64,000 bases of DNA. Origin: a virus (lineage: Duplodnaviria > Caudoviricetes). Under the pieces are notes generated by a model. The model saw nothing but the letters and a program-made list of their open reading frames with translations. It was not told the DNA's origin and searched no databases. Position 1 is the stretch's first letter. Each line of letters starts with the position of its first letter. The position numbers were made by a program, and so were the translations under genes. Positions 2,999-47,397 of the stretch are shown here, one piece after another. The stretch covers positions 24,800-88,799 of IMG/VR virus record IMGVR_UViG_3300016478_000063; one strand, written 5' to 3'.

Positions 2999-3649
2999 AT
3001 GATTTACGGTGTTGCTGTAAACGATTTACCTGATCACAAAACGCAAATAGTTGAAAAACATATCAATTCATTCGGGAAGGTTACTAGAAAGGTGGTGTGG
3101 CAATGTCCATTTTATACTAAATGGTTTAACATGTTATCTAGATGCTATAAAAAGAGCGAGTTGACAAGACATCCTACTTATGAAAATAAAACTGTTTGTG
3201 AGGAATGGCTTAAATTCTCCAACTTCAAGAAATGGATGGAGCAACAAGATTGGGAAAATAAAGAGTTAGATAAAGATATTCTTTTCTCTGGAAACAGTAT
3301 TTATTCTCCAAGCACTTGTGTTTTTGTGAGTAAAGAAATAAATAAATTCATACTTGAGAAGACGAAAATTAGGGATTTTCCAATTGGTGTGTCTTTCCAT
3401 AAAAAGAAGAGCAAGTTCATCGCATCGATCAGCTTAGGCAGAAACGGTAAAATTCAGCATTTGGGGACTTTCGACAACCAATATGAAGCTCACCTGTATT
3501 GGGCTGAAAGAAAGCTGAGTCTTGTGATTGAATTAGTAAAATCTGAAGACGAGAGGGTTGCAAATGCTCTTGTAGATAGATATACTTCGATGTATTATAA
3601 TGCTAAACGTAGATATGAGGAGTTTATCAATGGGGAAAAATTGGTCTGA
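2999..3649 (+). CDS. free-standing HNH homing endonuclease (family A)
   Basis: YGVAVND...CPFYTKWFNMLSRCY...ELDKDILFSGNSIYSPSTCVF, plus AP2-like C-terminus. Confidence 0.8.
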   Translation: MIYGVAVNDLPDHKTQIVEKHINSFGKVTRKVVWQCPFYTKWFNMLSRCYKKSELTRHPTYENKTVCEEWLKFSNFKKWMEQQDWENKELDKDILFSGNSIYSPSTCVFVSKEINKFILEKTKIRDFPIGVSFHKKKSKFIASISLGRNGKIQHLGTFDNQYEAHLYWAERKLSLVIELVKSEDERVANALVDRYTSMYYNAKRRYEEFINGEKLV

Positions 3650-5834
3650 CGGAGATTGGATTTGGGATGAAGAGGTGTATCCAAACGTCTATACTTGTGC
3701 AGTAGTTCATTCAAGTGGTCAGAACTTCCAAGTTTTTGAAATAAGTGACAGAAAGAATGATGTGCAAGAGCTTCTTGAATTTATGCGAGACATTAAGCGA
3801 AAAAATCATAGGCTTGTAGGTTTCAACTCGGTAAACTTTGACTATCCTGTACTTCATTATATTTTGAATAAATCAAAAGAATCGAAAAAGTCAAAAATCC
3901 ATTTAAAAATTTCAGCAAAGGAAATCTATGATGTTGGTATGAATCTTATTAAATCTCAGGATGACGAAGAGTCTAAGTCTAGGGCAATTAAGGAGTCAGA
4001 GGTTATAATTCCGCAACTTGATCTTTTTCTTGTACATCATTTTAACAATCGTGCAAGAGCAACATCTTTGAAGATGCTTGAGTTCAACATGAGGTCTGAT
4101 CAAATTGAAGACCTACCTTTCCCTGTTGGGAAACACCTGACCTCTGATGAAATTGATGTTTTGATTAAATACAACAAACATGATGTTCTGGAAACTTTAA
4201 AATTTTACAATGAATCAAGAGAAGCTATTGAGCTGCGTAACGAGCTTACTAAGCAGTTCGGTTTCGATTGCACAAACTATAATGATACCAAGATTGGCAA
4301 GCAACTTTTCATTGATCGTTTGGAGAAGGAGAACCCAGGATGCTGCTACAGTTACGGTAAATTTGGACGTAAAATCAATCAGACAAAGCGCGATAAAATC
4401 GTAATCAAGGACTGTTTGTTTGACTACATTGATTTCTCTAAGAATCGTCCAGAATTTCAAGCTGTACACCAATGGTTCAAACGTCAAATCATCACTGAAA
4501 CAAAAGGTGTGTTTACTGATCTTCTTGAACACAATCTTGGTGATGTTGCAAAATATGCTGAGATGAAAGTTAAGAAGATCAAGTTCAAAGCTGAACCGAG
4601 CCAACAGGAAATTGATGAAGTAAAGAAAGAGTTTCCTATGGGTTGGGTTGAGGTTACAGAACTAAAAGCAATGGAGGTTGTCAAAGACTCAGAAGGTAAA
4701 CCGATCAAAGAAGCCTATATTGACGAAAACGGTAAACAGAAACAGCGCAATGTGAAAGTTCCAAAGAAATCCTATCATTGGTGCTACAATATCGCTGAAA
4801 CTCTAAACGTAGTTATCAACGGTTTTCGATATGATTTTGGTGTTGGTGGTATTCATGGTGCTAAACAAGGGACTCACAAGTCTACAGAGAAACGTAAGCT
4901 ACGAACATTGGATGTTGCCAGCTACTATCCGAACATGGCAATCAGCAACAATGTTTATCCGAAGCACCTTGGGATGACATTTTGCAAAGTGTACAAGGAT
5001 TTGTACGTTGAACGTAAGAAACACGATAAAAAGTCAGCAGCAAACAAGGCTCTGAAGCTAGCTCTCAATGGGGTGTATGGCGATAGCAATAACGAGTTTA
5101 GTCCACTGTATGATCCAGCATATACCATGAGCATTACGATTGGTGGGCAGCTTTCACTTTGTATGCTGATGGGTGCTCTTGTGGATCACTGTGATGCTGA
5201 AATCATTATGTGTAACACTGATGGCTTTGAATATTTTGTTGATGTTGACAAGATTGAAAAAGCTGATAAGATTGTCAAACGATGGGAACAAGTGACTGGT
5301 CTTGAGATGGAAGGAGACACTTACTCTGTTATGTATGTTAGGGACGTAAATAATTACACTAGCATTACAGAATCAGGGAAGGTAAAGACCAAAGGTGCTT
5401 ATGAAGTGCTGCCTTACCGTGAGCTTGGATGGCATAAGAACCACTCAGCAATGGTTATTGCAATGGCTGTGCAAAAGGAGTTGCTTGGTGAATGTTCGGC
5501 AGAAGAGTTCATTCGTTCCCACAAAGATGCCTATGATTTTGTACTCAGAACAAAAGTACCTCGATCATCCAAGCTTTATCTGTGTTACGATGATGGACGT
5601 GAGGAACAGCAACAGAACATCTGTCGCTATTATCCAGCTTCAGAAGGTGGTAAGCTTGTTAAGCTAATGCCTCCACTTGAGGGTAGTGATGAATGGCGTA
5701 GACTTGGAATTGATACGGAGTGGGATGTTCTCACATGCAACAATATGAAGGATTTCAACTGGTCAAAGCTAAACTACGACTATTACATCACAGAAGCTCA
5801 GAAACTGATTGAAGGGGTGAAGAATGTATCATGA
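3630..5834 (+). CDS. DNA polymerase, family B, with 3'-5' exonuclease domain
   Basis: ExoI WDEEVY; motif A LDVASYYPN; motif B KLALNGVYG; motif C CNTDG; start ATG 3630 after GAGGAG. Confidence 0.88.
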   Translation: MGKNWSDGDWIWDEEVYPNVYTCAVVHSSGQNFQVFEISDRKNDVQELLEFMRDIKRKNHRLVGFNSVNFDYPVLHYILNKSKESKKSKIHLKISAKEIYDVGMNLIKSQDDEESKSRAIKESEVIIPQLDLFLVHHFNNRARATSLKMLEFNMRSDQIEDLPFPVGKHLTSDEIDVLIKYNKHDVLETLKFYNESREAIELRNELTKQFGFDCTNYNDTKIGKQLFIDRLEKENPGCCYSYGKFGRKINQTKRDKIVIKDCLFDYIDFSKNRPEFQAVHQWFKRQIITETKGVFTDLLEHNLGDVAKYAEMKVKKIKFKAEPSQQEIDEVKKEFPMGWVEVTELKAMEVVKDSEGKPIKEAYIDENGKQKQRNVKVPKKSYHWCYNIAETLNVVINGFRYDFGVGGIHGAKQGTHKSTEKRKLRTLDVASYYPNMAISNNVYPKHLGMTFCKVYKDLYVERKKHDKKSAANKALKLALNGVYGDSNNEFSPLYDPAYTMSITIGGQLSLCMLMGALVDHCDAEIIMCNTDGFEYFVDVDKIEKADKIVKRWEQVTGLEMEGDTYSVMYVRDVNNYTSITESGKVKTKGAYEVLPYRELGWHKNHSAMVIAMAVQKELLGECSAEEFIRSHKDAYDFVLRTKVPRSSKLYLCYDDGREEQQQNICRYYPASEGGKLVKLMPPLEGSDEWRRLGIDTEWDVLTCNNMKDFNWSKLNYDYYITEAQKLIEGVKNVS

Positions 5835-5852
5835 AAATATTTCAGAAAACAT

Positions 5853-5881
5853 TTGACAACCCCTGAAAATCGTGATTTAAT
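5853..5881 (+). promoter_or_regulatory. sigma70-like promoter
   Basis: TTGACA-17 bp-TTTAAT in the intergenic gap after the polymerase. Confidence 0.7.
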
Positions 5882-5929
5882 AGATGCCAAGCTTGATAGA
5901 CAAGCTTTAAATAAACAGAAGAGAGGAGA

Positions 5930-6142
5930 ATGATAATGAATATTGAAAATCTATCGGACATTGATGTTCTTGAGCTGTATAAGAAGAAGGCTTCTAGCCT
6001 ATCTTTTTACAATGCAGCAGAAGGGCAATCTTGGTACGAAGAACGACCTGCTCGTGAGCAATGTAAGAAGGAATTTACAGAGGTTGCGGCAGAGATTGAT
6101 AAGCGTGGTTTGGAAACCCCATCTGGTGATTATCTTATTTAA
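5930..6142 (+). CDS. hypothetical protein
   Basis: SD GAGGAG; 70 aa. Confidence 0.55.
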   Translation: MIMNIENLSDIDVLELYKKKASSLSFYNAAEGQSWYEERPAREQCKKEFTEVAAEIDKRGLETPSGDYLI

Positions 6143-14341: not shown

Positions 14342-15214
14342 ATGGGTATTAGTGCAAAAGTTATCGCTGACAGTAAATATCGTGATACACGACTGATTAC
14401 TCTGGAGATTGAGCTACACCGCTTCATTCTTCCTGAAGCAAACACTCACAAAGCTCTTAGCCGTAATTATCAAAGCAGCCGAGCGATTCCGATTCTTCGT
14501 CAGCTAGAGCAGATTGCAAATGATCCAGCTATGCCCGTATATTATGGGAAAGATCAAGCAGGAATGATTGCAGGTGAAGAACTGGAAGGTCGTGATCTTG
14601 AGCTTGCGAAGATGATTATTCTTGGTATGCGTGACGCCTGCTTGAACGGGGTTAAGCAGCTTCATAAGCTTGGTCTGCACAAGCAAGTGAGTAATCGCTA
14701 TGTTGAACCTTGGATGTGGACGAAAGGTGTTATTACAGCTACACACGAACACTTTAAAGCTATGTTCAGGCTCCGCAGACACTTTGCAGCACAACCAGAG
14801 ATTAAAGCTATTTTTGATGCAATTTACGAAGCTGTTAAAGCAAGTAAGCCTGTAGAACTTAAAGCTGGTGAATGGCATACCCCTTATTATGATCTAGGGT
14901 TTTGGCTTAAGGATTCTATTTACACAAAGAATGCACTAAAAGAGGCAATTCAAATCAGTGCGAGCTGTGTAGCACAAGTGAGCTACCGCAAGCTAGACGA
15001 TTCTCTTGAGAAAGCTACAAAGGTTTATGATATGCTAAATCTTCCTGTAGATGGTGTATATCCCGATGATCCTCCACATTTTAGCCCAACAGAGCATATT
15101 GCTAAAGCTGGTGATTGTGACATTGAAATGAGTGGTAACTTCCACAGTAATGACTTTATTCAGTACCGTAAGGTGCTTGAGAAAGGTCTTGAGAAAAAGT
15201 ATATTGGAGGGTAG
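14342..15214 (+). CDS. thyX: flavin-dependent thymidylate synthase
   Basis: ELHRFI..EANTHKALSRNYQSSRAIP ThyX motif; FRLRRHFAAQPEI. Confidence 0.85.
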   Translation: MGISAKVIADSKYRDTRLITLEIELHRFILPEANTHKALSRNYQSSRAIPILRQLEQIANDPAMPVYYGKDQAGMIAGEELEGRDLELAKMIILGMRDACLNGVKQLHKLGLHKQVSNRYVEPWMWTKGVITATHEHFKAMFRLRRHFAAQPEIKAIFDAIYEAVKASKPVELKAGEWHTPYYDLGFWLKDSIYTKNALKEAIQISASCVAQVSYRKLDDSLEKATKVYDMLNLPVDGVYPDDPPHFSPTEHIAKAGDCDIEMSGNFHSNDFIQYRKVLEKGLEKKYIGG

Positions 15215-33937: not shown

Positions 33938-34690
33938 TTACTCTTGATCGTAGTGTGGTTTAACTTCATAATTAAGGATGGAGTTATATGTAGTTTCTTT
34001 TAAATATGGCTTGTATTCGAAAGCAATGAGTTTGATCTTGTCCTCAACAAACATTTTAACTGCCATCCACGCATCATCGGGGTTACTATAGACCCCGAGA
34101 TAGGTATTCTTACCCCTAATAGAAGAAACAGCTTGAAACGATCCACCGGGAAGTAATGACACACCTCTTGGGTATTTTGAGTTTGATACTCTCTTCTTCC
34201 TTAGAATAACATTTAACTCTTTTGGGAGGTAGCAGCAAGTTTGCGGGGAATATAGTTTACCGTTCCCTAATAAATCCTTGTCAAGCTCCCAACCCTCTAT
34301 AAAATTTTCGGAGTGCCATTTAGCAAAATTCTGAAAGTTATGCCACTCTTGACAAACAATTACATTTTCATAAGACTTCTGTTTATTTTTACCATAACAC
34401 CTGTTCATCATTGCAGACCAAGCGTTATAACACTGTGTGATTTTACCACCTGAAACAGAAGAACTGTGCGGCCCCTGTCCAATAAAGCCTACGCCGAAAA
34501 CCGAGGGGAAGTTAGGATTCTTAACAGACCCTAATTTAAAATCAGATGCCCGTGTCCTAACTTTCGTACCATCTTCAAACGTAACCTCAACGTCTAAAGC
34601 CCCTGTATAGAGAGATACGGTACATGTTCCTGTACTGGTAGTAACAGTATCCCCAACAAAAACAGACTGTTTCGGGCCTTTCTTATTCAA
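33938..34690 (-). CDS. free-standing HNH homing endonuclease (family A core)
   Basis: WSAMMNRCY...VCQEWHNFQNFAKW...WELDKDLLGNGKLYSPQTCCY; start TTG 34690 after AAGGAG. Confidence 0.8.
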   Translation of the reverse strand: MNKKGPKQSVFVGDTVTTSTGTCTVSLYTGALDVEVTFEDGTKVRTRASDFKLGSVKNPNFPSVFGVGFIGQGPHSSSVSGGKITQCYNAWSAMMNRCYGKNKQKSYENVIVCQEWHNFQNFAKWHSENFIEGWELDKDLLGNGKLYSPQTCCYLPKELNVILRKKRVSNSKYPRGVSLLPGGSFQAVSSIRGKNTYLGVYSNPDDAWMAVKMFVEDKIKLIAFEYKPYLKETTYNSILNYEVKPHYDQE

Positions 34691-34721
34691 AAGATTTCTC
34701 CTTCTGCAAATGTGAGGACTA

Positions 34722-34750
34722 ATTATACAGGTTTTAATATAAGAAGTCAA
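34722..34750 (-). promoter_or_regulatory. sigma70 promoter of the HNH gene
   Basis: TTGACT-17 bp-TATAAT; the -35 overlaps the upstream gene's stop codon. Confidence 0.75.
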
Positions 34751-35089: not shown

Positions 35090-35917
35090 TTAATTCGTTC
35101 CGAACTTATCAGCGTCTGTTGGTAGCTGATCTGCCGGGGTACTTGGAGCAGTGGAATCCCCTGCGGCTTGAGCAGCTTCGCAATTCTTTGGGGTGCTATT
35201 AGCGTTAGTCTTTTTCTTTGTTGGTTCTACTTTCTTTTTAACAGCATCCGCCACATCTTTAGGAATTTCTGTTTTCTCTAAAAGAGCAAATGTAACTTGT
35301 TCTAAAGTAAGATTAAGAAAAAGAGCATCCCCTGTGTCGGGATTCTCATCTATTCTAAAACTTGTAATAACAAGGTCAGAAATAATATCCCTGATGTTTG
35401 TTCCGTCAAACTCATAAAGCTCTACAAGCTGAATATGACTCTCTGATCTATCTGTTTTGGGGTTGTACTTTAACCCCTTAAGGACGCCTTTCAGAATATC
35501 CTTAACAACTACCTCATTAGATAAGTCTGTACGCTGATTACCAAAAAACTCAACCTTTGGTTTTGACGTACCTAAAAACTGTCCAATGGTGGCAGGGAGA
35601 TACTGTAACAACTTACTTCCTTGTAAGTTGATTGAGATTGGCTCTGGTTGTTCCTGCGCATTCAATGGACGTTGCTGATTTTCATCTAAAAGCTGCCAAG
35701 GGATGTGAGACAAATCTGTTCCGCTTACTACACCAGATATAGTGAATATAGGATTCTCTTTGATAAAGTGGTCTGTAATAGAAGCCCCTGCGTCTACAGG
35801 GTGCTTCGTAACTTGTCCACGATAATCTTGAGAATAGCTTGTAACAGCATCAAGATATATGTATCCACTTGGTTCTTCTGGGTTGTCCAAACTCCCCCAC
35901 TTAATCGCTAATGACAT
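35090..35917 (-). CDS. baseplate/tail-tube initiator (Dit-like)
   Basis: YLDAVTSY...VTKHPVDAGASITDH; L.FNLTLEQV. Confidence 0.65.
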   Translation of the reverse strand: MSLAIKWGSLDNPEEPSGYIYLDAVTSYSQDYRGQVTKHPVDAGASITDHFIKENPIFTISGVVSGTDLSHIPWQLLDENQQRPLNAQEQPEPISINLQGSKLLQYLPATIGQFLGTSKPKVEFFGNQRTDLSNEVVVKDILKGVLKGLKYNPKTDRSESHIQLVELYEFDGTNIRDIISDLVITSFRIDENPDTGDALFLNLTLEQVTFALLEKTEIPKDVADAVKKKVEPTKKKTNANSTPKNCEAAQAAGDSTAPSTPADQLPTDADKFGTN

Positions 35918-38900
35918 TATTGTCCTCCAGAATATCCGTAAGATGTGAGGGTTTGCTGTAGTTTGTCATCCAGCATTTTTACAAAGCTGTTAGCAACATC
36001 CTCTGTCTTCTCTGCTGTAATGTTAGCGTCAAGTTTAACTTCAACCTTCATAACACCAGGAAGTTTTGTACCATAAGCATCCATGTTCCGCTGCATCATA
36101 GACTCCTGAGCCATGTTTTTAGCATTCTCATCGTACATCTCAGGTGTCCAGCCATACATCCCGCTGGAAGGATTATTAAGAGCATTACGCTTCTTTTGTT
36201 CTTGATCAAAAGGTTTTAACCCGGTACTAGCTGTATTCGCTAAAGGATCATAACCCAAGCCTCTGCCGATCATTCCAGCAGGACCGTTACGAATACCAAT
36301 AGAAAGGGCTTGCTTTAACCCTTCGCCCGCACCAGAAAAATCCCCACTGGCCAGTTTGTTTATAGACTGTAAGGTGATCAGAAGGGAGGTTTGTATCTCT
36401 TTGAGTGTATTCAGTACAGTCTGGAGTGCTCCTGATTCTTTGAAAAGATCGAAAAGCATCTTCCATCCTTCATAGGATTTGACCCTAAGCTCTCCAACTT
36501 CTTTAAGAATATCTCTGATGTTAAACATCATTTGCATGATTGTTTCACCAGTCTCTCCTTGACCAAACAACCACTTCTGAAAGTTGCTATCCCTCCCATC
36601 AAACATACGTCCAATAGATTGAGGTAAAAGAACCATCTGCCTAAAGAAGTAAGTTCCTTTATCAAACATCTCTCCGAGATTAGGCATTATTCTATCCATT
36701 TCTCGCATAGCGTCAGTTGCTGTACGCCACAAACGAGCAAAGCCTGTTTCACCACCAGCTTTAGAAAAGCTCTCTAACATCTGAGTTTGCATATTCTGTG
36801 AACGGGCTTGTTCCGCGATAGATGATTTCTTCATAACATCAATCTTGGGCGCTGCGCGTTCACTTAGGATTCTTGCAACAATAGGGAGAATTTTAGCTGA
36901 TTCAATGTTCCCTTTTTCAATATCCTCATAGAATTTGGCATGAGCTTCTTGTCCAACCAACCCGCTACCTGTCATTTCTGCATAGGACTCTGCGAATACG
37001 TCCATCGTCGTTTATGTTCAGGGAGGGGCGTTAATCCCTCCCCCGCTTTATTCAAGCTGCTTATGCTTTCACATAAGACCAGATCATATCACAATCCTAA
37101 AATATAGGATTCCTACCGTTTCGCTTCACTTGAAGCTACGTCCGAAGACTGATCGTTGAACGTTACCCTTAAATGTTTAAAAGTCTTCCCAGCTTTGATA
37201 TTACTTACAGTGTGTCTATTAACACGTGGATGATTCATGCAGTCAACAATATCTGTTATCGAAAGGTTGTTCTCGATAAGTTCTAATATTTTAAGAACAA
37301 GATCATCAGTAATTTTAGGCTTAGTTTTACTAAAATTAAAATCTTTTGAAACCTCTTGCCACGTTCTGCGAGATTTAACAGAATAAACTACAGAAAGATT
37401 TACACCAGTTTTTCTGGATATTTCTCTGCAATTAAAACCATCAACAAGCATTTGGCAGACAGTCATTATCTCACCATTGGTATAGGTTGAAACAAAAGCA
37501 TCTTCTGCTTTTGGGAAATTTCCTGCCTCTACCCCATGAGTTGAGTTTTCTTGTGCTGTAACCCATTCTAAGTTACCAATAGAATTGTTAGTTCTATTAG
37601 AATCTATGTGATTCACGAAAGGTTTGTTTGAGGGGTTTGGTACAAAGACCAGTGCTACAGCCCTGTGGACATATATTCCACGAAGCTTAGAACCATCCCA
37701 AACTTTACAACGAAAATAACCGTCTTTATCTTTAAAAGGTTTATAAATACTTTTAGTAAAGCTACTACGAATCTGCCCAAGCTCATTCACTTCTGCAAAT
37801 TCATAATTTGGAACAACATAAAACATTTCGACCTCCTTGGTTAAAGAAGATCGGGTCTTCGCTGCGGATTACCCAATCTTGATTTCTTAAATCGCAAGTG
37901 TACCACACTTTTAAGAAAATGCAAGCTCTAAGGGCTTTCCCGCAATTAGATAGGTTTGCTATCACCATTACTGGCGAAAGGGGCTACAAATTAACCCGGC
38001 ATTGATTCGGCCATCTGCCGCCGCACTTCCTCCATACTAAGGACACCTTTCGTTTATGTTCAAGGGTGGTCGTTAATCACCCCCCGCTTTATTCAAGCTG
38101 CTACATGTTTCCATGCAGACCAGACCATATCTTCACTTAAAATCAGTGCCTACCGTTTCGCTTCACTTGAAGCTACTCTACTCCATTCAGATAAATCTGT
38201 GTTTCGATGGTCGTTGGGGGCGAGGCGTTTTATGCCTATCCCTGCTGATTGCCCAATTCTTCCGATTGTTACTGCCTTTAGGCTAGTACGAAAGACTCTA
38301 AGGGGTTTCCAGCATATTGTAGGTTTTAGTTGAGCTGTTATGTTAACCCAACATCTGCGAGAGGGCGTTTTGTACTAACTTACGTCTTGCTGGAGTTACA
38401 CCCATTGCAGTTTGGTACTCAGAGAAGCCTTTAAAAATATCTTGACTCTGCTCTACACCAAGACCCGCACCCAGTGAGTTTGAAAGGAATTGGTTGTAAT
38501 CTGGCAAGGCTTCCATGTAGTTGAAACCAACGTCATTAGCCAAACCAAACAACCACTTATTAGCATCAACACCTTGCTGCGTACTGTACCCCTTAGCTGC
38601 TAACACAGCTTGAGTTGTAAGTTGTCCAGAGATTAGTTCTTGGTTTGCTGTGTTCAATGAACCAAGACCATAAACACCACCAACAAAAGGAAGGCTTGCT
38701 ACACCATAACGAGCAAGAGCACCGCCAGCACCGCCAGCATGTAGGAAATTAGCTCTTGAAAAAGAAGAATCACTTCTTGTTTGTTTTGTTGTAGCCGAGC
38801 CTACTGCTTGCTTCACTGGTGCCATTCGGGGTGTCAAGCTGACTTGCTTATTAGCTTGGTTAATTGCTTGCCTGATTGCGGAAGAGACTTGACCGGCGAG

Positions 38901-39158
38901 ATTCTGCTTATTTACAACAAAATTATCAACAGGGAACCTAACTCTACGACTTACTTCATTAAACGCTCTCTGAACATCGAATTGAAGTCTGTTAGTGTTG
39001 AATGTGAAGTTTATGTTTAACTTCCCACTCTTTGCCATCCTTTTCTGGAAGTCCATTAGGCGTTTTTCAATAGACTTCAGATAGGTATCAACTTGTTTAA
39101 TCTGACCTTTATCTACTCGCAGGGCAACGCGTGCGAAATAGCTGGAAATAGCTACCAT
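35917..39158 (-). CDS. tape measure protein, three exons: 39158-38346, 38050-37994, 37008-35917 (653 aa spliced)
   Basis: Joining restores ALSQMLG|KGVLSMEEVRRQMAESMPG|TMDVFA, the conserved tape-measure motif; exon lengths 813, 57 and 1092 nt are all in frame. Confidence 0.9.
37113..37826 (-). CDS. intron-encoded HNH homing endonuclease
   Basis: YVHRAVALVF...VNHIDSNRTNNSIGNLEWVT; C-terminal HTH-like repeats; last codons run into the intron core. Confidence 0.88.
   Translation of the reverse strand: MFYVVPNYEFAEVNELGQIRSSFTKSIYKPFKDKDGYFRCKVWDGSKLRGIYVHRAVALVFVPNPSNKPFVNHIDSNRTNNSIGNLEWVTAQENSTHGVEAGNFPKAEDAFVSTYTNGEIMTVCQMLVDGFNCREISRKTGVNLSVVYSVKSRRTWQEVSKDFNFSKTKPKITDDLVLKILELIENNLSITDIVDCMNHPRVNRHTVSNIKAGKTFKHLRVTFNDQSSDVASSEAKR
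37897..37924 (-). promoter_or_regulatory. promoter inside the P5 extension of TMP-I2
   Basis: TTGCAT-16 bp-TACACT with extended -10 TG. Confidence 0.5.
38051..38345 (-). mobile_element. group I intron TMP-I1 (295 nt, ORF-less)
   Basis: P1 TTGGGT|...GCTCAA; P4 TGCTG/CAGCA; P3 CCTAC/GTAGG; P7 GACCA/TGGTC; ends GAACATAAACG. Confidence 0.92.
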
Positions 39159-39162
39159 TCAA

Positions 39163-39456
39163 CTATCCTTTATTGTTTGCACTCTTTTGTGCTTGTTTGG
39201 ATTGTTGAGCCTTTTGTGCTTCTTCTTTCATCGTTTCTTGAGCATCCATAATCTCAATGAAATCATAAAAATCATCTATAGAATACAAGTGCTCAAGTTC
39301 ATGTTTGGTGCAAAGTCTAGGCTCATATGTCAAAAGACGCATCACTTGGAAGTCTTGACTAAACTCATCAGTGAGCCTTTGCATTTCCTCTGTTCTCACT
39401 ACCGCTGAAGCAGATTTACTCTTGCTTACTCTTCGGTAGCGTTTTCTTCCAAAGGG
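39163..39456 (-). CDS. tail assembly chaperone frameshift extension (gpT-like)
   Basis: The -1 frame is open from the slippery site through the 78 aa ORF; fusion about 199 aa. Confidence 0.75.
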   Translation of the reverse strand, partial: PFGRKRYRRVSKSKSASAVVRTEEMQRLTDEFSQDFQVMRLLTYEPRLCTKHELEHLYSIDDFYDFIEIMDAQETMKEEAQKAQQSKQAQKSANNKG

Positions 39457-39761
39457 TCGGCAAAATTGTACTCCAAGATCATAGCAAGTAGTTGGAAAAT
39501 TTCAGTATACTTACCTGCAAAGTGGTTATCAAAAGTCTTTTGATCAAATGCCATACTCCCTTTTGAGCAACCAAGAGAAATAATCTTGAATACTTGATCT
39601 GGATTCAGTGCCATCACGTTAATACCATCTTCCGTAAACAGACCGGCATCATGAATGTCTTTTTGAACACTTAAACCAGCAAGAGCACGAAACTTCTTCA
39701 GATTGTAAATCTCACCACCAACTTCTACTTCCTTGGTTTGGAAGGAATTTAGATTACCCAT
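39426..39761 (-). CDS. tail assembly chaperone (gpG-like)
   Basis: Lies between tube genes and tape measure; 111 aa. Confidence 0.75.
   Translation of the reverse strand: MGNLNSFQTKEVEVGGEIYNLKKFRALAGLSVQKDIHDAGLFTEDGINVMALNPDQVFKIISLGCSKGSMAFDQKTFDNHFAGKYTEIFQLLAMILEYNFADPLEENATEE
39450..39456 (-). other. -1 ribosomal frameshift slippery site C CCT TTG
   Basis: X XXY YYZ heptamer in the correct phase (GAC CCT TTG). Confidence 0.75.
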
Positions 39762-39765
39762 TTAT

Positions 39766-40780
39766 TTATTCCTCAGAATTGAAAATAACCCCTCCAAACG
39801 AGGAGTAAATTTGTTTTATTTTGTCTATATTAAAACTAAAAAGTCGTCTCTGTGTAGCCGTCTGGCATTTCACTTCTAAGAAGAACGCCACACTCCAACT
39901 TTTTCTTACATGCTCTTTCGGCATTTTTACAAGATTCAACGTCAGGAAACTTATATGTTAAATAATTTTTTATTTTGTATATTGACCTAGAGTTTTGTCC
40001 TTTAATTCTCTGCCTACTATCCCTTGCAATACCAAACTTTATGGCTACAATACTTTCCGTAGAATCCATAACGAGATTAATATAAGCCTCTTGTTGTCTC
40101 ATCGGAGAGCATGCACAAGGTCTGTGACCTTTTCTTAAATCACCACTTATGGACTCTCCTACTTCACCGCATACTGGGCACAATGTATTCCAGTAGGCAC
40201 GCCAACCCAGATTATTTAGTCTGTCACTTCTCCAGAACTTGGTGTCGGGGTGGAAAGCTCCTGTATCTAAAAAGGCTGTAATCATTACATTATCAGGCGT
40301 CTTCTTTACTTCCTTCATATATTCGCGACGACATTCAGGGCAGCCTGTATCGTTATTAAGTAAATTACCAATTACCCCACTACTCCACTCTCCGTGTTCA
40401 TCACAAACCATCTTGAGTTTGGTTTTCCTACCACACCACTCCCCCATAAAACCTAGAAACTTGTAACCAAGTTCTTCAGCTTTACGTGAACACAACACAG
40501 CATATTGTTCCACAGACCGCCTAGGTGCTTTACTGCAACCGCAAGGAAGTTGTTTTGCTTTGAGAAGTTTTCTTTTTGAACTCTTAAAGTACCCTTCACC
40601 AAACAACTCAGTGTCTTTACAACAAAGTTCACACTTTACTATATAGTATTTATTATTTCCTGTTCTACCACTCCAACCTATAACAGTTAGCTGATTATCC
40701 TTCCCAAACCTAGGCTTACTCAAAGACCATTCGTCTTGTTGTAGTCCGTATTCGGGGTCAATTACATCTTCTAAATTCAT
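39766..40780 (-). pseudogene. Zn-ribbon + T5orf172/GIY-YIG-like homing endonuclease with a +1 frameshift near its 3' end
   Basis: CxxC repeats; IKFGIA...R...GYTET; ORF stops at TTT TAG (39836) while the +1 frame continues SFNIDKIKQIYSSFGGV. Confidence 0.6.
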
Positions 40781-42446: not shown

Positions 42447-44818
42447 TCACACACGGGCTACGCCACGGATGATGACTTTACGAACCGAGCCTGCAAGCCG
42501 GAACGCGATAAGGAAGTCACCCATCAGCCGTTGAGCACGTTGAACTTCTGGAATTGCCAGAGGATCAGGAGCTACTACCGTATATGGAGTGTCGTCAGCA
42601 ATACCACCATTAGCCACGCCTTGACTCATGACAGTGCGAATGTCATTTTCAATAATTGTGGCCCCGGTGCGCGTGAATGGGATTTTTTTCACATTAACCA
42701 TGCGGAAAAACACAGATTCTTCCAAACGAGTGATCAGCCACAGGATGAATACTGATTCCGTTTATGTTCACACAAGATCGTTACTCTTGTACTGCTTTAG
42801 GTTTCGTTGTCCACCCATTTTTATTTCCTTTGCACCAGCTCTCAACAATGTAAGGCTCTACATTACCGTAATACTTTGCTGCAAAGATAGGGCTTTCAAA
42901 CTCTAAACCTTCTGGAGATATGAATATACTTTTACTTCTTGAAGAGGTCATGTGCAGGAACTCTTCATTTCTTTCTGCATTTATAATCAAAGAGTCACTA
43001 AACTCTCTTGAAACCTGTTTCTTCTTTTCTGCGCTCGCTTGCACTGCTTTAAGCATCTGAGCATACCCTTTCTCAGTGGCTCTGTATTCAATCATTTGAG
43101 CGCGTTTAATTTCCTTCCATTCCTCAGAACGTTTTTGACCTGTCCACGCTTCTCTTGCAAGTTTTGCATACTCTTTGATAAGACCAGAGGAAACTTTATA
43201 ATCGTTTAGCTCTTTAAGTTTCCTTTGCCGCTCTGGTGTGTTAGCAAGCAACCTTATCCTTTCTAATAAACCAGACTCAACATTAGCTAAACCTCTAGCT
43301 ACCTTCTGATCCACTGTTTGTCCACGCATCATTACCCAAGCCATATAGTCAGACGCCCTTTTATACGCCTTCCACAACAACCTGTGTGCAAAAACATGCT
43401 GTCTGTAATCTAACCTTATAAGGTTTTCTTTTGAATCATCGCCTCCTGCATGGCGAGGAATGATGTGGTGGACTTCTGTATAAGTTCCTTCATCAAACAC
43501 TTGATTCTTGTATTTTTCTATAAATGCAAAATAAAGTTTTTCGTAATTCATTGTATCTCCAAGCTACTTACGCTTTCACGTAAGACCAGACTATATCTTC
43601 ACCTTTCTTTTCAAGTTAAGGTGCTCCCCATTTCGCCTCACTTGAGGCTACGGCATCACTGCCTAGTCGTTGAACCTTCCCCTCATCAGGGCTTGGCTGC
43701 TGATTGCCACATAATATGTTGTTTTCAAACATTCACGCTTAACTATATCTCAAGTTTACGTTGTAGTCAACATATCTTCGCGGGTTTCCAGCAATTAAAG
43801 GAGTTATTCAAAAGTCATTTCTGACTTAGGCGACTTGTTTCAAATCGATAGGAGCACCACTAACCATGTTACCATCTTGGAAAACTTCAACACCAGCTTT
43901 ACGGGTATAGAAGTTGCAGTTTTTACTACGCAGGTTAGTTTTCTGAGTCTCGGTTAGACGATCAACAGTAATACCAGTTGCAGTTTTTAGGTTCCAATCA
44001 TTAGAACCCGGAACTTCTGGGAGTTGGCTACCAATCCACGCACATTCAGGGTACTGAGTGGCTGCATTCTTACTGTAGATAAGGAATGTCTGGTCATAGT
44101 TAAGATCACTAAGAGCCGTGGCTACGTCAGTGATTTGAGTGGTAGGAACATCTGCATCAGCAGTTGCGGCACCATAAATCTTACGGCGAGCTTGAATGGC
44201 AGCAGCAATCTCAAGAATGTCAGCTTTAACGCGAGTCTCGGTAGTCAAAGCAAACCACTGATCATTTACATCTTCAACAGCATCAATCGTGTCTGTCCAA
44301 GTCTCTGTAGGTGCCGCATCTTGCTTAACAAGGTTAGAAGATACTCGTACTGACCAATCGCTACCCGGAGTAGCAGGAGCAATAGTAAGACTGCCGGTGT
44401 TGTCTGTTACGTTAATACCTGCAACAGTACCAATAGTCAGATCAAGACCAGTTGCAATTTCATCTGCTGTAGCATTGGCATCTGAAGTGTAGCTATAGTC
44501 CACTTCATTGATGGTTACAACATAGGTTGCATTATTAGCCACTGTTGGTGTGATAGTGACGCTATCAACTTGGCGACGGCCTACTACAACAGAAGCAGGT
44601 TTTAGTTCTTGACCAAATAAGGTCTGAACCATTTTATATACAACATCTGAACTATCGAAATCTTCTGCAATACCTGTAATACTTGTGTATACACGAGCAC
44701 GCTCAGGGAAGTTTGTAAACGCAGCCATTACACATGGAATGTCAAAGCTGGCTGTATCAATAGCAGACGTTTGTTTGTCGATAAATACCTCGACAACATC
44801 TGACAAGTTATTTGCCAT
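42447..44818 (-). CDS. tail sheath protein, two exons: 44818-43844 and 42758-42447 (428 aa spliced)
   Basis: Joining gives GAPID|ESVFILWLITRLEESVF, the conserved sheath ID..W motif, then KIPFTRTG; exons of 975 and 312 nt are in frame. Confidence 0.9.
42781..43551 (-). CDS. intron-encoded HNH homing endonuclease (MobE-like N-terminus)
   Basis: EVHHIIPRHAGGDDSKENLIRL..RQHVFAHRLLWKAY. Confidence 0.85.
   Translation of the reverse strand: MNYEKLYFAFIEKYKNQVFDEGTYTEVHHIIPRHAGGDDSKENLIRLDYRQHVFAHRLLWKAYKRASDYMAWVMMRGQTVDQKVARGLANVESGLLERIRLLANTPERQRKLKELNDYKVSSGLIKEYAKLAREAWTGQKRSEEWKEIKRAQMIEYRATEKGYAQMLKAVQASAEKKKQVSREFSDSLIINAERNEEFLHMTSSRSKSIFISPEGLEFESPIFAAKYYGNVEPYIVESWCKGNKNGWTTKPKAVQE
43742..43770 (-). 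promoter_or_regulatory. promoter inside the P5 extension of the sheath intron
   Basis: TTGACT-17 bp-TATAGT. Confidence 0.65.
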
Positions 44819-46274: not shown

Positions 46275-46385
46275 TTAACACCCACAGGTATTTGAATTGA
46301 ATGGATCAGAATAAAATAAACCACTCCCATCACAAACTCTTACTCTTGTTAGAGAAGGACGAACATTATCTGGATTATTGTTATT
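46275..46385 (-). pseudogene. orphaned 3' end of the head-tail adaptor gene (not in ORF track)
   Basis: NNNNPDNVRPSLTRVRVCDGSGLFYSDPFNSNTCGC* versus the adaptor's NNANPDNIRPELTKIRVCSIDKTFFGC*; followed directly by the RBS of the next gene. Confidence 0.85.
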
Positions 46386-47397
46386 AGAACAAACACTTCT
46401 CTTCATGTTCTTTATACCTCTCATATTTTCTTTTTAGTTTAAAGTCAGAGTCTTCGTAAAGAATAGAAAGAATAGTCAATGCTTTTGAACCATAAACACC
46501 AATACGGTACAGGTCATTCCCTTTACTTTTAATTATTTTTGGAAGTTTTTCAAAAGTTACAAGGTTTTTACAAAAGTCTAAAAACTGCTCACAAATTATA
46601 GAACTTCCGCACAGAGTGACACAGGTAGTATTCTTAGGGTGACCAACATGGCCATCACCATCAATCACACCGCGCCAAAAGTGACGGTCGCTTAAAAATT
46701 CTTCGGGACAGACTTCCTTCATGGATTTTCTTGGAGTAAGACCTAAACTTCGTAAATCTGAAGATATATCATCGGATTTAAAATGCAATCTTGAGGATAG
46801 ATAAGTCTTTCCTGTCCTGCTGTCGAACCTAGAGTAATCTTTCACTTCATTCTTGAGGCACAGGAAATTCCTCAGTTCTTCAAGAATGTGTCGGTCGGTT
46901 TGCTTGAGTCTTATCTCAACAGTACCGTCATCCCATAGACAACCATCGGTTAGTAGTAATCCGTAGAAGTAAGACCTTTGCTCGGACGGTACACTAAAAG
47001 CTGCGTTATTCAGTCCGAATACAGCCTTCATTTTAATACCGAGGTTTGTATCCTTCCCAAACTTATTATGCAGTAAAGCAAGTACAGATTTGTAGTCTAT
47101 TTCTAACTTACTAGCTATCTCTGTAGAATTATACCCACTCTCCCACAAAGAGAGTATTTCTGGGAACAAAGACTCATGAATATTTCTAGAAAGTCTTTTA
47201 GTGTCAAGACGAAAATCTAAGAACCTTTCAAATATGTATGTATGAGGAACAGCAAAGTCTTTAGCTATACTTTGGAGTGTCTCGCCATCTCTGTACCTTA
47301 AATAACAACTCATCAACCAAGTTTCGCCGCCTAGCGCCTCAAATCTTGGTTTTGCCTTCTTACTGATTCCGACGTAACTTTTAACTTTGTATCCCAT
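46384..47397 (-). CDS. free-standing double-motif LAGLIDADG endonuclease
   Basis: YFYGLLLTDGCL and HFWRGVIDGDGHV motifs; N-terminal HTH repeats. Confidence 0.85.
   Translation of the reverse strand: MGYKVKSYVGISKKAKPRFEALGGETWLMSCYLRYRDGETLQSIAKDFAVPHTYIFERFLDFRLDTKRLSRNIHESLFPEILSLWESGYNSTEIASKLEIDYKSVLALLHNKFGKDTNLGIKMKAVFGLNNAAFSVPSEQRSYFYGLLLTDGCLWDDGTVEIRLKQTDRHILEELRNFLCLKNEVKDYSRFDSRTGKTYLSSRLHFKSDDISSDLRSLGLTPRKSMKEVCPEEFLSDRHFWRGVIDGDGHVGHPKNTTCVTLCGSSIICEQFLDFCKNLVTFEKLPKIIKSKGNDLYRIGVYGSKALTILSILYEDSDFKLKRKYERYKEHEEKCLF

Follow-up and report, generated by a model that had tools for sequence, protein, structure and literature searches.

Two related group I introns 57 nucleotides apart in the predicted tape-measure gene of an uncultured Felix-O1-like myovirus

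The DNA considered here is a 64,000-nt window, positions 24,800-88,799, of the IMG/VR virus record IMGVR_UViG_3300016478_000063 (88,799 bp, CheckV 100%). In its list of open reading frames (ORFs), two frames of 271 (39158..38343) and 362 amino acids (37005..35917) stand on either side of a third one of 237 amino acids (37826..37113). The question raised by this locus is whether the two outer frames belong to a single gene for the tail length tape-measure protein, split by a pair of group I introns, I1 and I2, that enclose a 57-nt exon. Here we examine this proposal by means of direct reading, covariance models, comparative folding and a comparison with natural relatives. We will show that I1 and I2 are group I introns and that the locus is very probably a three-exon gene from which both are spliced. 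Window numbering is used throughout, and all features of the gene are on the minus strand.

The exon borders can be read directly. Exon 1 ends with the codons CAG AUG UUG GGU, an in-frame UAA opens I1, and the intron closes with ..GAACAUAAACG, that is, with a terminal G. The same pattern recurs at the next border, where exon 2 ends ..GGU and an in-frame UAA opens I2, whose 5′ start is UAAUUUGUAGCCCC. The 3′ end of I2 is again ..GAACAUAAACG with the terminal G, and exon 3 opens with ACG AUG GAC. When positions 39158-38346, 38050-37994 and 37008-35917 are joined in silico, 1962 nt in frame are obtained, which encode 653 amino acids without an internal stop. Exon 2 itself lacks both a start codon and a ribosome-binding site. 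Exon 3 has an ATG (37005) as its second codon, and the sequence read shows no Shine-Dalgarno sequence in front of it. The coordinates and lengths of the original prediction hold to the nucleotide when compared with the sequence and the ORF list, and that list indeed contains just the 271- and 362-residue fragments that it expected from ORF callers.

The first evidence for the nature of the introns comes from the Rfam group I model RF00028, which has a gathering score of 50 bits; matches below that score were read by their E values. At the gathering threshold, the only match in the window is a third intron (43853-43567, 99.3 bits), described further below. Under it, I1 is matched from end to end with 49.6 bits (E 7e-11 for the region, 1.3e-9 for the entire window), and I2 is matched in two pieces, 30.4 bits for the 5′ half (P1-P6) and 14.8 bits for the 3′ half (P6′-P9), owing to the 714-nt ORF that loops out between the two. 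The Rfam search that had been named as a check thus matches I1 just under the gathering score and I2 in halves. In the whole 88,799-bp record, the matches to the model are limited to these three introns. The positional ortholog of I1 in a related IMG/VR locus, L039, is called L039-B in the following; it scores 55.1 bits, above the cut-off, and the adjacent L039 introns score 68.9 and 77.4 bits.

The structural support was obtained with RNAalifold on ortholog pairs from IMG/VR, which were used instead of a MAFFT alignment of six introns that misaligned the 5′ cores and was left out of the pair counting. I1 and L039-B are 74% identical and give 70 pairs, 20 of which have compensatory changes on both sides, and the helices recovered are P1, P3, P4, P5, P5a, P6, P7.1, P7.2, P8, P9, P9.1 and P9.2. 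The last base of exon 1, a U, pairs with the G of the internal guide sequence in this fold, and at exon position −6 the pair is U-A in the window and A-U in L039-B, which means that exon and guide covary. For I2, the 5′ half folds together with its ortholog in another relative, L035, into P1, P2, P4, P5 and P5a/b. When the 3′ halves are compared among four introns, P7.2, P8, P9, P9.1 and P9.2 are retained, with 16 compensatory pairs.

P7 is outside the reach of nested folding and was read from the sequences, where compensatory differences are seen among the three introns of the window: GACCA/UGGUC in I1, GAUCA/UGAUC in I2 and GACUA/UAGUC in the third one. P3 is CCUAC/GUAGG in I1 and CCUAUC/GGUAGG in I2, and the P6a stem that closes over the I2 ORF is ACCC/GGGU in the window and ACCU/AGGU in L035. 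The P7.1 hairpin is CAGA..UCUG in I1 and GUC-UUCG-GAC in I2; it is followed by P7.2, GCUUC-AAGU-GAAGC, and compensatory changes occur here in the relatives. With these extra P7.1/P7.2 helices, as in phage IA2 introns, both introns appear IA2-like. The U.G pair at both 5′ splice sites, the full cores and the terminal G, all claimed originally, are supported by the sequence reading and by RNAalifold. The identity of I1 and I2 as group I introns, with P1 and its U.G pair, a P3-P8 core with the P3/P7 pseudoknot, covariation and a terminal G, is thus confirmed.

The interrupted gene can be compared with uninterrupted ones. By tblastn, 66 phage records match, 65 of them from Pseudomonas phages; nearly all are Pseudomonas myoviruses of 88-101 kb, and many are annotated as tape measure. 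The best match is Pseudomonas phage vB_PsaM_M1 (Ounavirinae, from seawater), in which the gene is a single ORF of 692 amino acids between the chaperone and baseplate genes. The spliced 653-residue protein aligns with it at 44% identity (E 8e-107), unbroken across both junctions, with NALSQMLGKGVLSMEEVRRQMAES..MPGTMDVFAESY in the window and NAVAQMGAKGQIMQEELKGQLAEA..LP..QLFAEAY in vB_PsaM_M1. Exon 1 is 52% identical to the N-terminal part of the vB_PsaM_M1 gene, exon 2 aligns with its KGQIMQEELKGQLAEA.. stretch, and exon 3 is colinear with both vB_PsaM_M1 and L035. The claim that removal of the introns restores a 653-residue tape measure is thus borne out by an open joined frame that follows an intact homolog.

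As to the function of this protein, exon 1 matches PHROG 20644, "tail length tape measure protein" (E 7e-6), and weakly Pfam TMP_3 (20.2 bits, below the cut-off of 41). The vB_PsaM_M1 homolog is also below that cut-off, with 23.1 bits over residues 183-342, which places the introns in the middle of that domain. A tail assembly chaperone gene lies upstream (39426-39761) and a Dit-like gene downstream (35090-35917), and the same order of chaperone, tape measure and baseplate genes is found in vB_PsaM_M1 and in phage Bitten. In the GenBank record of vB_PsaM_M1, the tape-measure gene (OP714164.2 55891-57969; L001:6001-8079) is labelled "nucleotide kinase", which, judging by position and homology, is an annotation error.

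Natural alleles provide an independent view of the junctions. A megablast search of the region against GenBank phages found nothing, and a scan of IMG/VR with a protein pattern gave only one distant relative. The relatives used here were obtained by scanning IMG/VR with the conserved P7.2 motif, which yielded 32 loci, several of them with tape-measure homologs. L035 is 65% identical in protein to the window upstream of the I2 site. It is intact at the I1 site, where it reads CAGATGCAGGGT followed by AAAGGCGTC, the very sequence that ligation of exons 1 and 2 is predicted to give in the window. Its I2 ortholog (983 nt) is 74% identical, nuclease included, and occupies the identical site; it follows CCGGGU, ends in GAACAUAAACG and is succeeded by ACA AUG. 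In exon 2, 18 of the 19 residues are identical. L039 shows the reverse situation: the I1 site is occupied by the second of its introns, the I1 ortholog, and there is no intron at the I2 site. The two intron types are thus found apart, L039 having only the I1 type of the two and L035 only the I2 type. The genes of L022, L008, L037, L025, L006, phage Bitten and vB_PsaM_M1 are uninterrupted through the motif.

We consider it highly probable, on these grounds, that an uncultured Felix-O1-like myovirus carries here a three-exon tape-measure gene with two related self-splicing group I introns 57 nt apart, of which I2 would be mobile by its HNH endonuclease, and that they belong to a pile-up of introns at a hot spot. 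It is important to point out what weighs against this. The score of I1 is 0.4 bits short of the gathering score, P1 of I2 has only 4 pairs on the exon side, and a search for P10 gave no convincing helix for I1 (the 3 possible pairs in I2, ACG/UGU, were not used as evidence). The tape-measure assignment is based on synteny, weak profiles (TMP_3 20-23 bits against 41) and annotated homologs. Finally, the genome is a metagenome assembly, so that this exact sequence need not be viable.

According to one alternative, the introns have decayed or splicing does not take place, and the tape measure is made as separate polypeptides; another is that the interruption is an assembly artefact. The ATG at the second codon of exon 3 could serve the former, but it has no Shine-Dalgarno sequence before it, and exon 2 is conserved in L035 despite its lack of a start signal. 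Moreover, the core helices are all intact and covarying, the homologs are single uninterrupted genes, and the counterpart in Vibrio phage ICP1 splices (PMC10448857). An artefact is contradicted by the same I2 insertion in the independent contig of L035. Taken together, we regard these alternatives as extremely improbable.

An intein, a programmed frameshift and a split gene were also considered and rejected. The intervening DNA folds as group I ribozymes and opens with in-frame stops, and it is absent from the homologs exactly at the predicted junctions.

Table 1. Features of the tape-measure locus (window numbering)
Feature	Position	Strand	Description
Tape-measure exon 1	38346..39158	-	271 codons, ends ..LSQMLG; from ORF list
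Intron I1	38051..38345	-	ORF-less group I intron of 295 nt, IA2-like with P7.1/P7.2
I1 internal guide sequence GCUCAAC	38329..38335	-	pairs with exon end GUUGGGU (P1), U.G at splice site
Tape-measure exon 2	37994..38050	-	57 nt, 19 codons, encodes KGVLSMEEVRRQMAESMPG
Intron I2	37009..37993	-	985 nt, group I, ORF looped out of P6a
I2 internal guide GCCC	37981..37984	-	pairs with exon-2 end GGGU (P1), U.G at splice site; RNAalifold
Shine-Dalgarno AAGGAGGU of HNH gene	37831..37838	-	predicted hairpin with upstream GAUCUUC
HNH homing-endonuclease gene inside I2	37113..37826	-	237 amino acids; Pfam, PHROG and structure match
Tape-measure exon 3	35917..37008	-	363 codons, starts TMDVFAESY

The following sequence of events can be proposed for the predicted three-exon gene. 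On the late tail transcript, translation would end at the in-frame UAA with which each intron begins, and this would keep ribosomes out of the ribozyme. Each ribozyme would then fold, with P1 and its U.G pair, the P3-P8 core with the P3/P7 pseudoknot, P7.1/P7.2, P9-P9.2 and the terminal G, and would excise itself by two transesterifications initiated by guanosine, to yield the mRNA for the 653-residue tape measure. Since I1 and I2 share no exon nucleotides for P1, either of them may splice first. During co-infection, the HNH enzyme of I2 would nick or cut intron-less alleles, and repair would copy I2 into them. I1, which has no nuclease, may move as a passenger of I2 or of neighbouring nuclease genes, or may simply be inherited.

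A different outcome of the same chemistry is that the I2 ribozyme uses the I1 splice site and joins exon 1 to exon 3. This is conceivable because GGGU stands at the end of each 5′ exon and is all that the I2 guide pairs with, and because the two introns share about 80% identity over their last ~125 nt. As the skipped exon of 57 nt is a multiple of three, an in-frame tape measure shorter by 19 residues would result. We consider such exon skipping unlikely. If it does occur, it would represent alternative group I splicing in a phage of a Gram-negative host, as reported for orf142 of Staphylococcus phage Twort in vitro (see below), with a possible effect on tail assembly or length.

The protein encoded in I2 matches Pfam HNH_3 with 38.4 bits (cut-off 24.8), PHROG 59 with E 7e-46 and the structure of I-HmuI (1U3E) with E 5e-9; a match of 17.5 bits to HTH_23, for the C-terminal helix-turn-helix of this enzyme type, is below its cut-off. 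By these matches, the nuclease is of the I-HmuI type, and the predicted route of homing is accordingly nicking near the insertion site. An I-HmuI-type nuclease likewise resides within a group I intron in Bacillus phage SPO1, namely I-HmuI itself. There, however, the host gene is that of the DNA polymerase, as opposed to the tape measure here, and nicking by the I2 nuclease is a prediction.

The nuclease gene is intertwined with the ribozyme. Its last ~50 nt overlap J6/7, P7, P7.1, P7.2 and P3′ of I2, the stop codon UAG being within P3′, and its strong Shine-Dalgarno sequence is part of a predicted hairpin (Table 1) that is conserved between the window and L035 (RNAalifold columns 153-160/170-177). 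The predicted pairing of the Shine-Dalgarno sequence and the overlap of ORF and ribozyme together suggest a mutual exclusion between nuclease translation and ribozyme folding, as in other phage introns.

We now come to the relation between the two introns. I1 and I2 are paralogs with a mosaic relation. Over its first 150 nt, I1 has an identity of 71% with L039-B and 55% with I2; over its last 125 nt, the values are 79-82% with I2-type introns and 72% with L039-B. The pattern hints at exchange between neighbouring introns. A signature of co-conversion was sought by following how the nucleotide and third-position identity between the exons of the window and L035 changes with the distance from the I2 site, and no rise was found (50-60% near the site, 10-70% elsewhere). 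By this measure, there is no sign of recent homing between the two lineages.

The original prediction had suggested that I1 may hitch-hike on the I2 nuclease by co-conversion. In its full form, the idea is that the ORF-less I1 spreads only by lying within the tract co-converted when a double-strand break or nick made by the I2 HNH enzyme is repaired, so that the two would move as one unit. With a spacing of 57 nt, co-conversion is plausible, and collaborative homing has been established as a concept (cited by Barth et al. 2023, PMC10448857). Furthermore, the 3′ part of I1 is nearer to the I2-type introns than to its positional ortholog, which suggests recombination between neighbours; this mosaic signal, however, amounts to about 10 nucleotide differences. 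The distribution in the relatives also speaks against the idea, as L035 has I2 with an intact I1 site and L039 has the I1 ortholog with no intron at the I2 site, and the third-codon-position identity between the window and L035 is not raised beside I2. Because the introns occur apart and the exons display no co-conversion signature, we rate hitch-hiking as possible but somewhat doubtful.

The other scenario is that I1 is independent of I2: it would once have had its own nuclease, or used a free-standing one, and lost it, and would now be vertically inherited and immobile while still splicing. The separation of the two types in the relatives is in line with this, as are the ORF-less introns found between nuclease-bearing ones in L039 and ICP1 and the free-standing endonuclease genes that flank the tail module of the window. 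In ICP1, moreover, the nuclease content of the tape-measure introns turns over while the splice junctions stay (PMC10448857). On the other hand, there is no remnant ORF in I1, and the resemblance of its 3′ part to I2 points to some exchange. In our judgement, the arguments for and against an independent I1 are evenly balanced.

The intron family of I1 is also represented in L041:963-4387 (Pseudomonas phage vB_PaeM_C2-10_Ab02), with about 72% identity over the 3′ 160 nt of I1. There, an "endonuclease VII" ORF stands between the "part I" and "part II" that an intron of that type makes of the DNA polymerase gene of Pakpunaviruses.

The relatives reveal that the insertions in the window are part of a larger pattern, with one to five introns in the tape-measure motif of each intron-bearing relative. 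The most extreme case is L039, an extension of L021 (IMGVR_UViG_3300028603_000078, 3017-6071, minus strand), which has five RF00028 matches in a row (35.9-77.4 bits). Its exons were read as ..KLVMSA / LSQMMG (18 nt) / 11 nt / 15 nt / 22 nt / MPGTMSTF, where the slashes mark the introns, so that all five lie within about 75 coding nt. Each of them is preceded by U and ends in G, and HNH_3 genes are present in two of the five. Splicing of all five in silico leads to an open frame of 648 amino acids, which aligns over residues 1-530 with the window protein (E 2e-88). L020, from a complete genome of 94.7 kb, has one intron of 906 nt (3439-4344, minus strand) at KGKITA/EEL, and L023 has a single one (14660-14964, plus strand) after EELKGQ, which runs off the end of the locus.

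Counting the window, a few relatives and ICP1, there are about ten distinct insertion sites within ~100 nt of coding sequence. This is the most conserved motif of the tape measure. We infer that the pair of I1 and I2 represents one case of selfish introns piling up at a tape-measure hot spot, and no regulatory device.

The closest known system is that of Vibrio phage ICP1, whose tape-measure gene has four exons and three introns according to RNA-seq and reverse-transcription PCR (RT-PCR; Barth et al. 2023, PMC10448857). Its middle intron usually has an HNH-3 gene, and the nuclease content varies among isolates while the splice junctions stay; the same authors describe the tape-measure gene as "frequently interrupted" in phages. 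We found four RF00028 matches (77.9, 38.9, 28.9 and 17.5 bits) that cover the three introns, and read the sites as ..KNQVMA / EEL / KGQLG / EVMPNAM. In common with the window, this is a myovirus of a Gram-negative host, with group I introns clustered in the same tape-measure motif, micro-exons, and one intron with an HNH_3-type nuclease beside ORF-less ones. The two also differ. The insertion sites in the window, ..QMLG/KGV.. and ..MPG/TMD.., are not those of ICP1, which has three introns and inner exons read as 8 and 16 nt as compared to two introns and an exon of 57 nt, and the two tape-measure proteins are too distant for BLAST. Splicing in ICP1 is proven by RNA-seq and RT-PCR, whereas in the window it is predicted from the DNA.

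Two further systems are close to that of the window. In prophages of the Bacillus cereus group, Tourasse and Kolsto (2008, PMC2504315) describe tape-measure group I introns of classes IA1/IA2 at three sites (TMP-IVS1, IVS2 and IVS3a/b), with two per gene in some strains; paralogous introns, 80% identical, are located at different sites of the gene, and P1 is adapted to each. Related group I introns at different sites of a tape-measure gene are what the window has as well. However, these are temperate prophages of the siphovirus type in Gram-positive hosts, the gene exceeds 1200 amino acids, the sites are far apart, and no micro-exon is mentioned in the text consulted. For Twort, PMC10136302 and PMC11878797 report three group I introns in the tail tube gene orf142 (citing Landthaler and Shub 1999), two of them highly similar IA2 introns around a 23-nt exon, with exon skipping in vitro. 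Similar introns flanking a very short exon in a late tail gene are thus common to both, but in Twort the gene is a different one, the host is Gram-positive, and the exon skipping, a possibility in the window, was demonstrated. The statement in the original prediction that multiple introns in a late gene are known from Twort agrees with this.

The original prediction had also stated that tandem tape-measure introns appear unusual in a phage with a Gram-negative-type lysis cassette. This is not supported, in view of the precedents in ICP1, the B. cereus-group prophages and Twort. The window is a tidy new example, the same arrangement in the same motif of this gene having already been published for ICP1.

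The present case is useful for annotation. A gene finder would call the gene as two fragments and an orphan nuclease, with the 19-codon exon lost, which the exact exon coordinates in Table 1 correct. In addition, a Felix-O1-like marine lineage joins the evidence that group I introns and their nucleases land preferentially in one short conserved tape-measure motif. The results support Barth et al. in regarding tail genes as arenas in which nucleases drive exchange among co-infecting phages, and involve no new mechanism.

The third group I intron of the window (42759-43843, minus strand; RF00028 99.3 bits) splits the tail sheath gene (44818..42447) after ..GAPID. An HNH ORF of 256 amino acids (43551..42781) lies downstream of its core, and its 3′ end, GAACAUAAACG, is the same as in I1 and I2. 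The sheath protein of vB_PsaM_M1 is colinear across this junction (residues 335/336).

Free-standing endonuclease-like genes are also present in the tail module, at 39836-40780, 33938-34750 and 46384-47397, all on the minus strand. They comprise a match to a CapR-domain/PHROG 681 endonuclease, located between the tail tube and chaperone genes, an HNH endonuclease (PHROG 953) downstream of the baseplate-proximal genes, and one LAGLIDADG_3 protein. Together, these genes give the impression of a "nuclease island" surrounding the tail module, of the kind described for ICP1-like phages.

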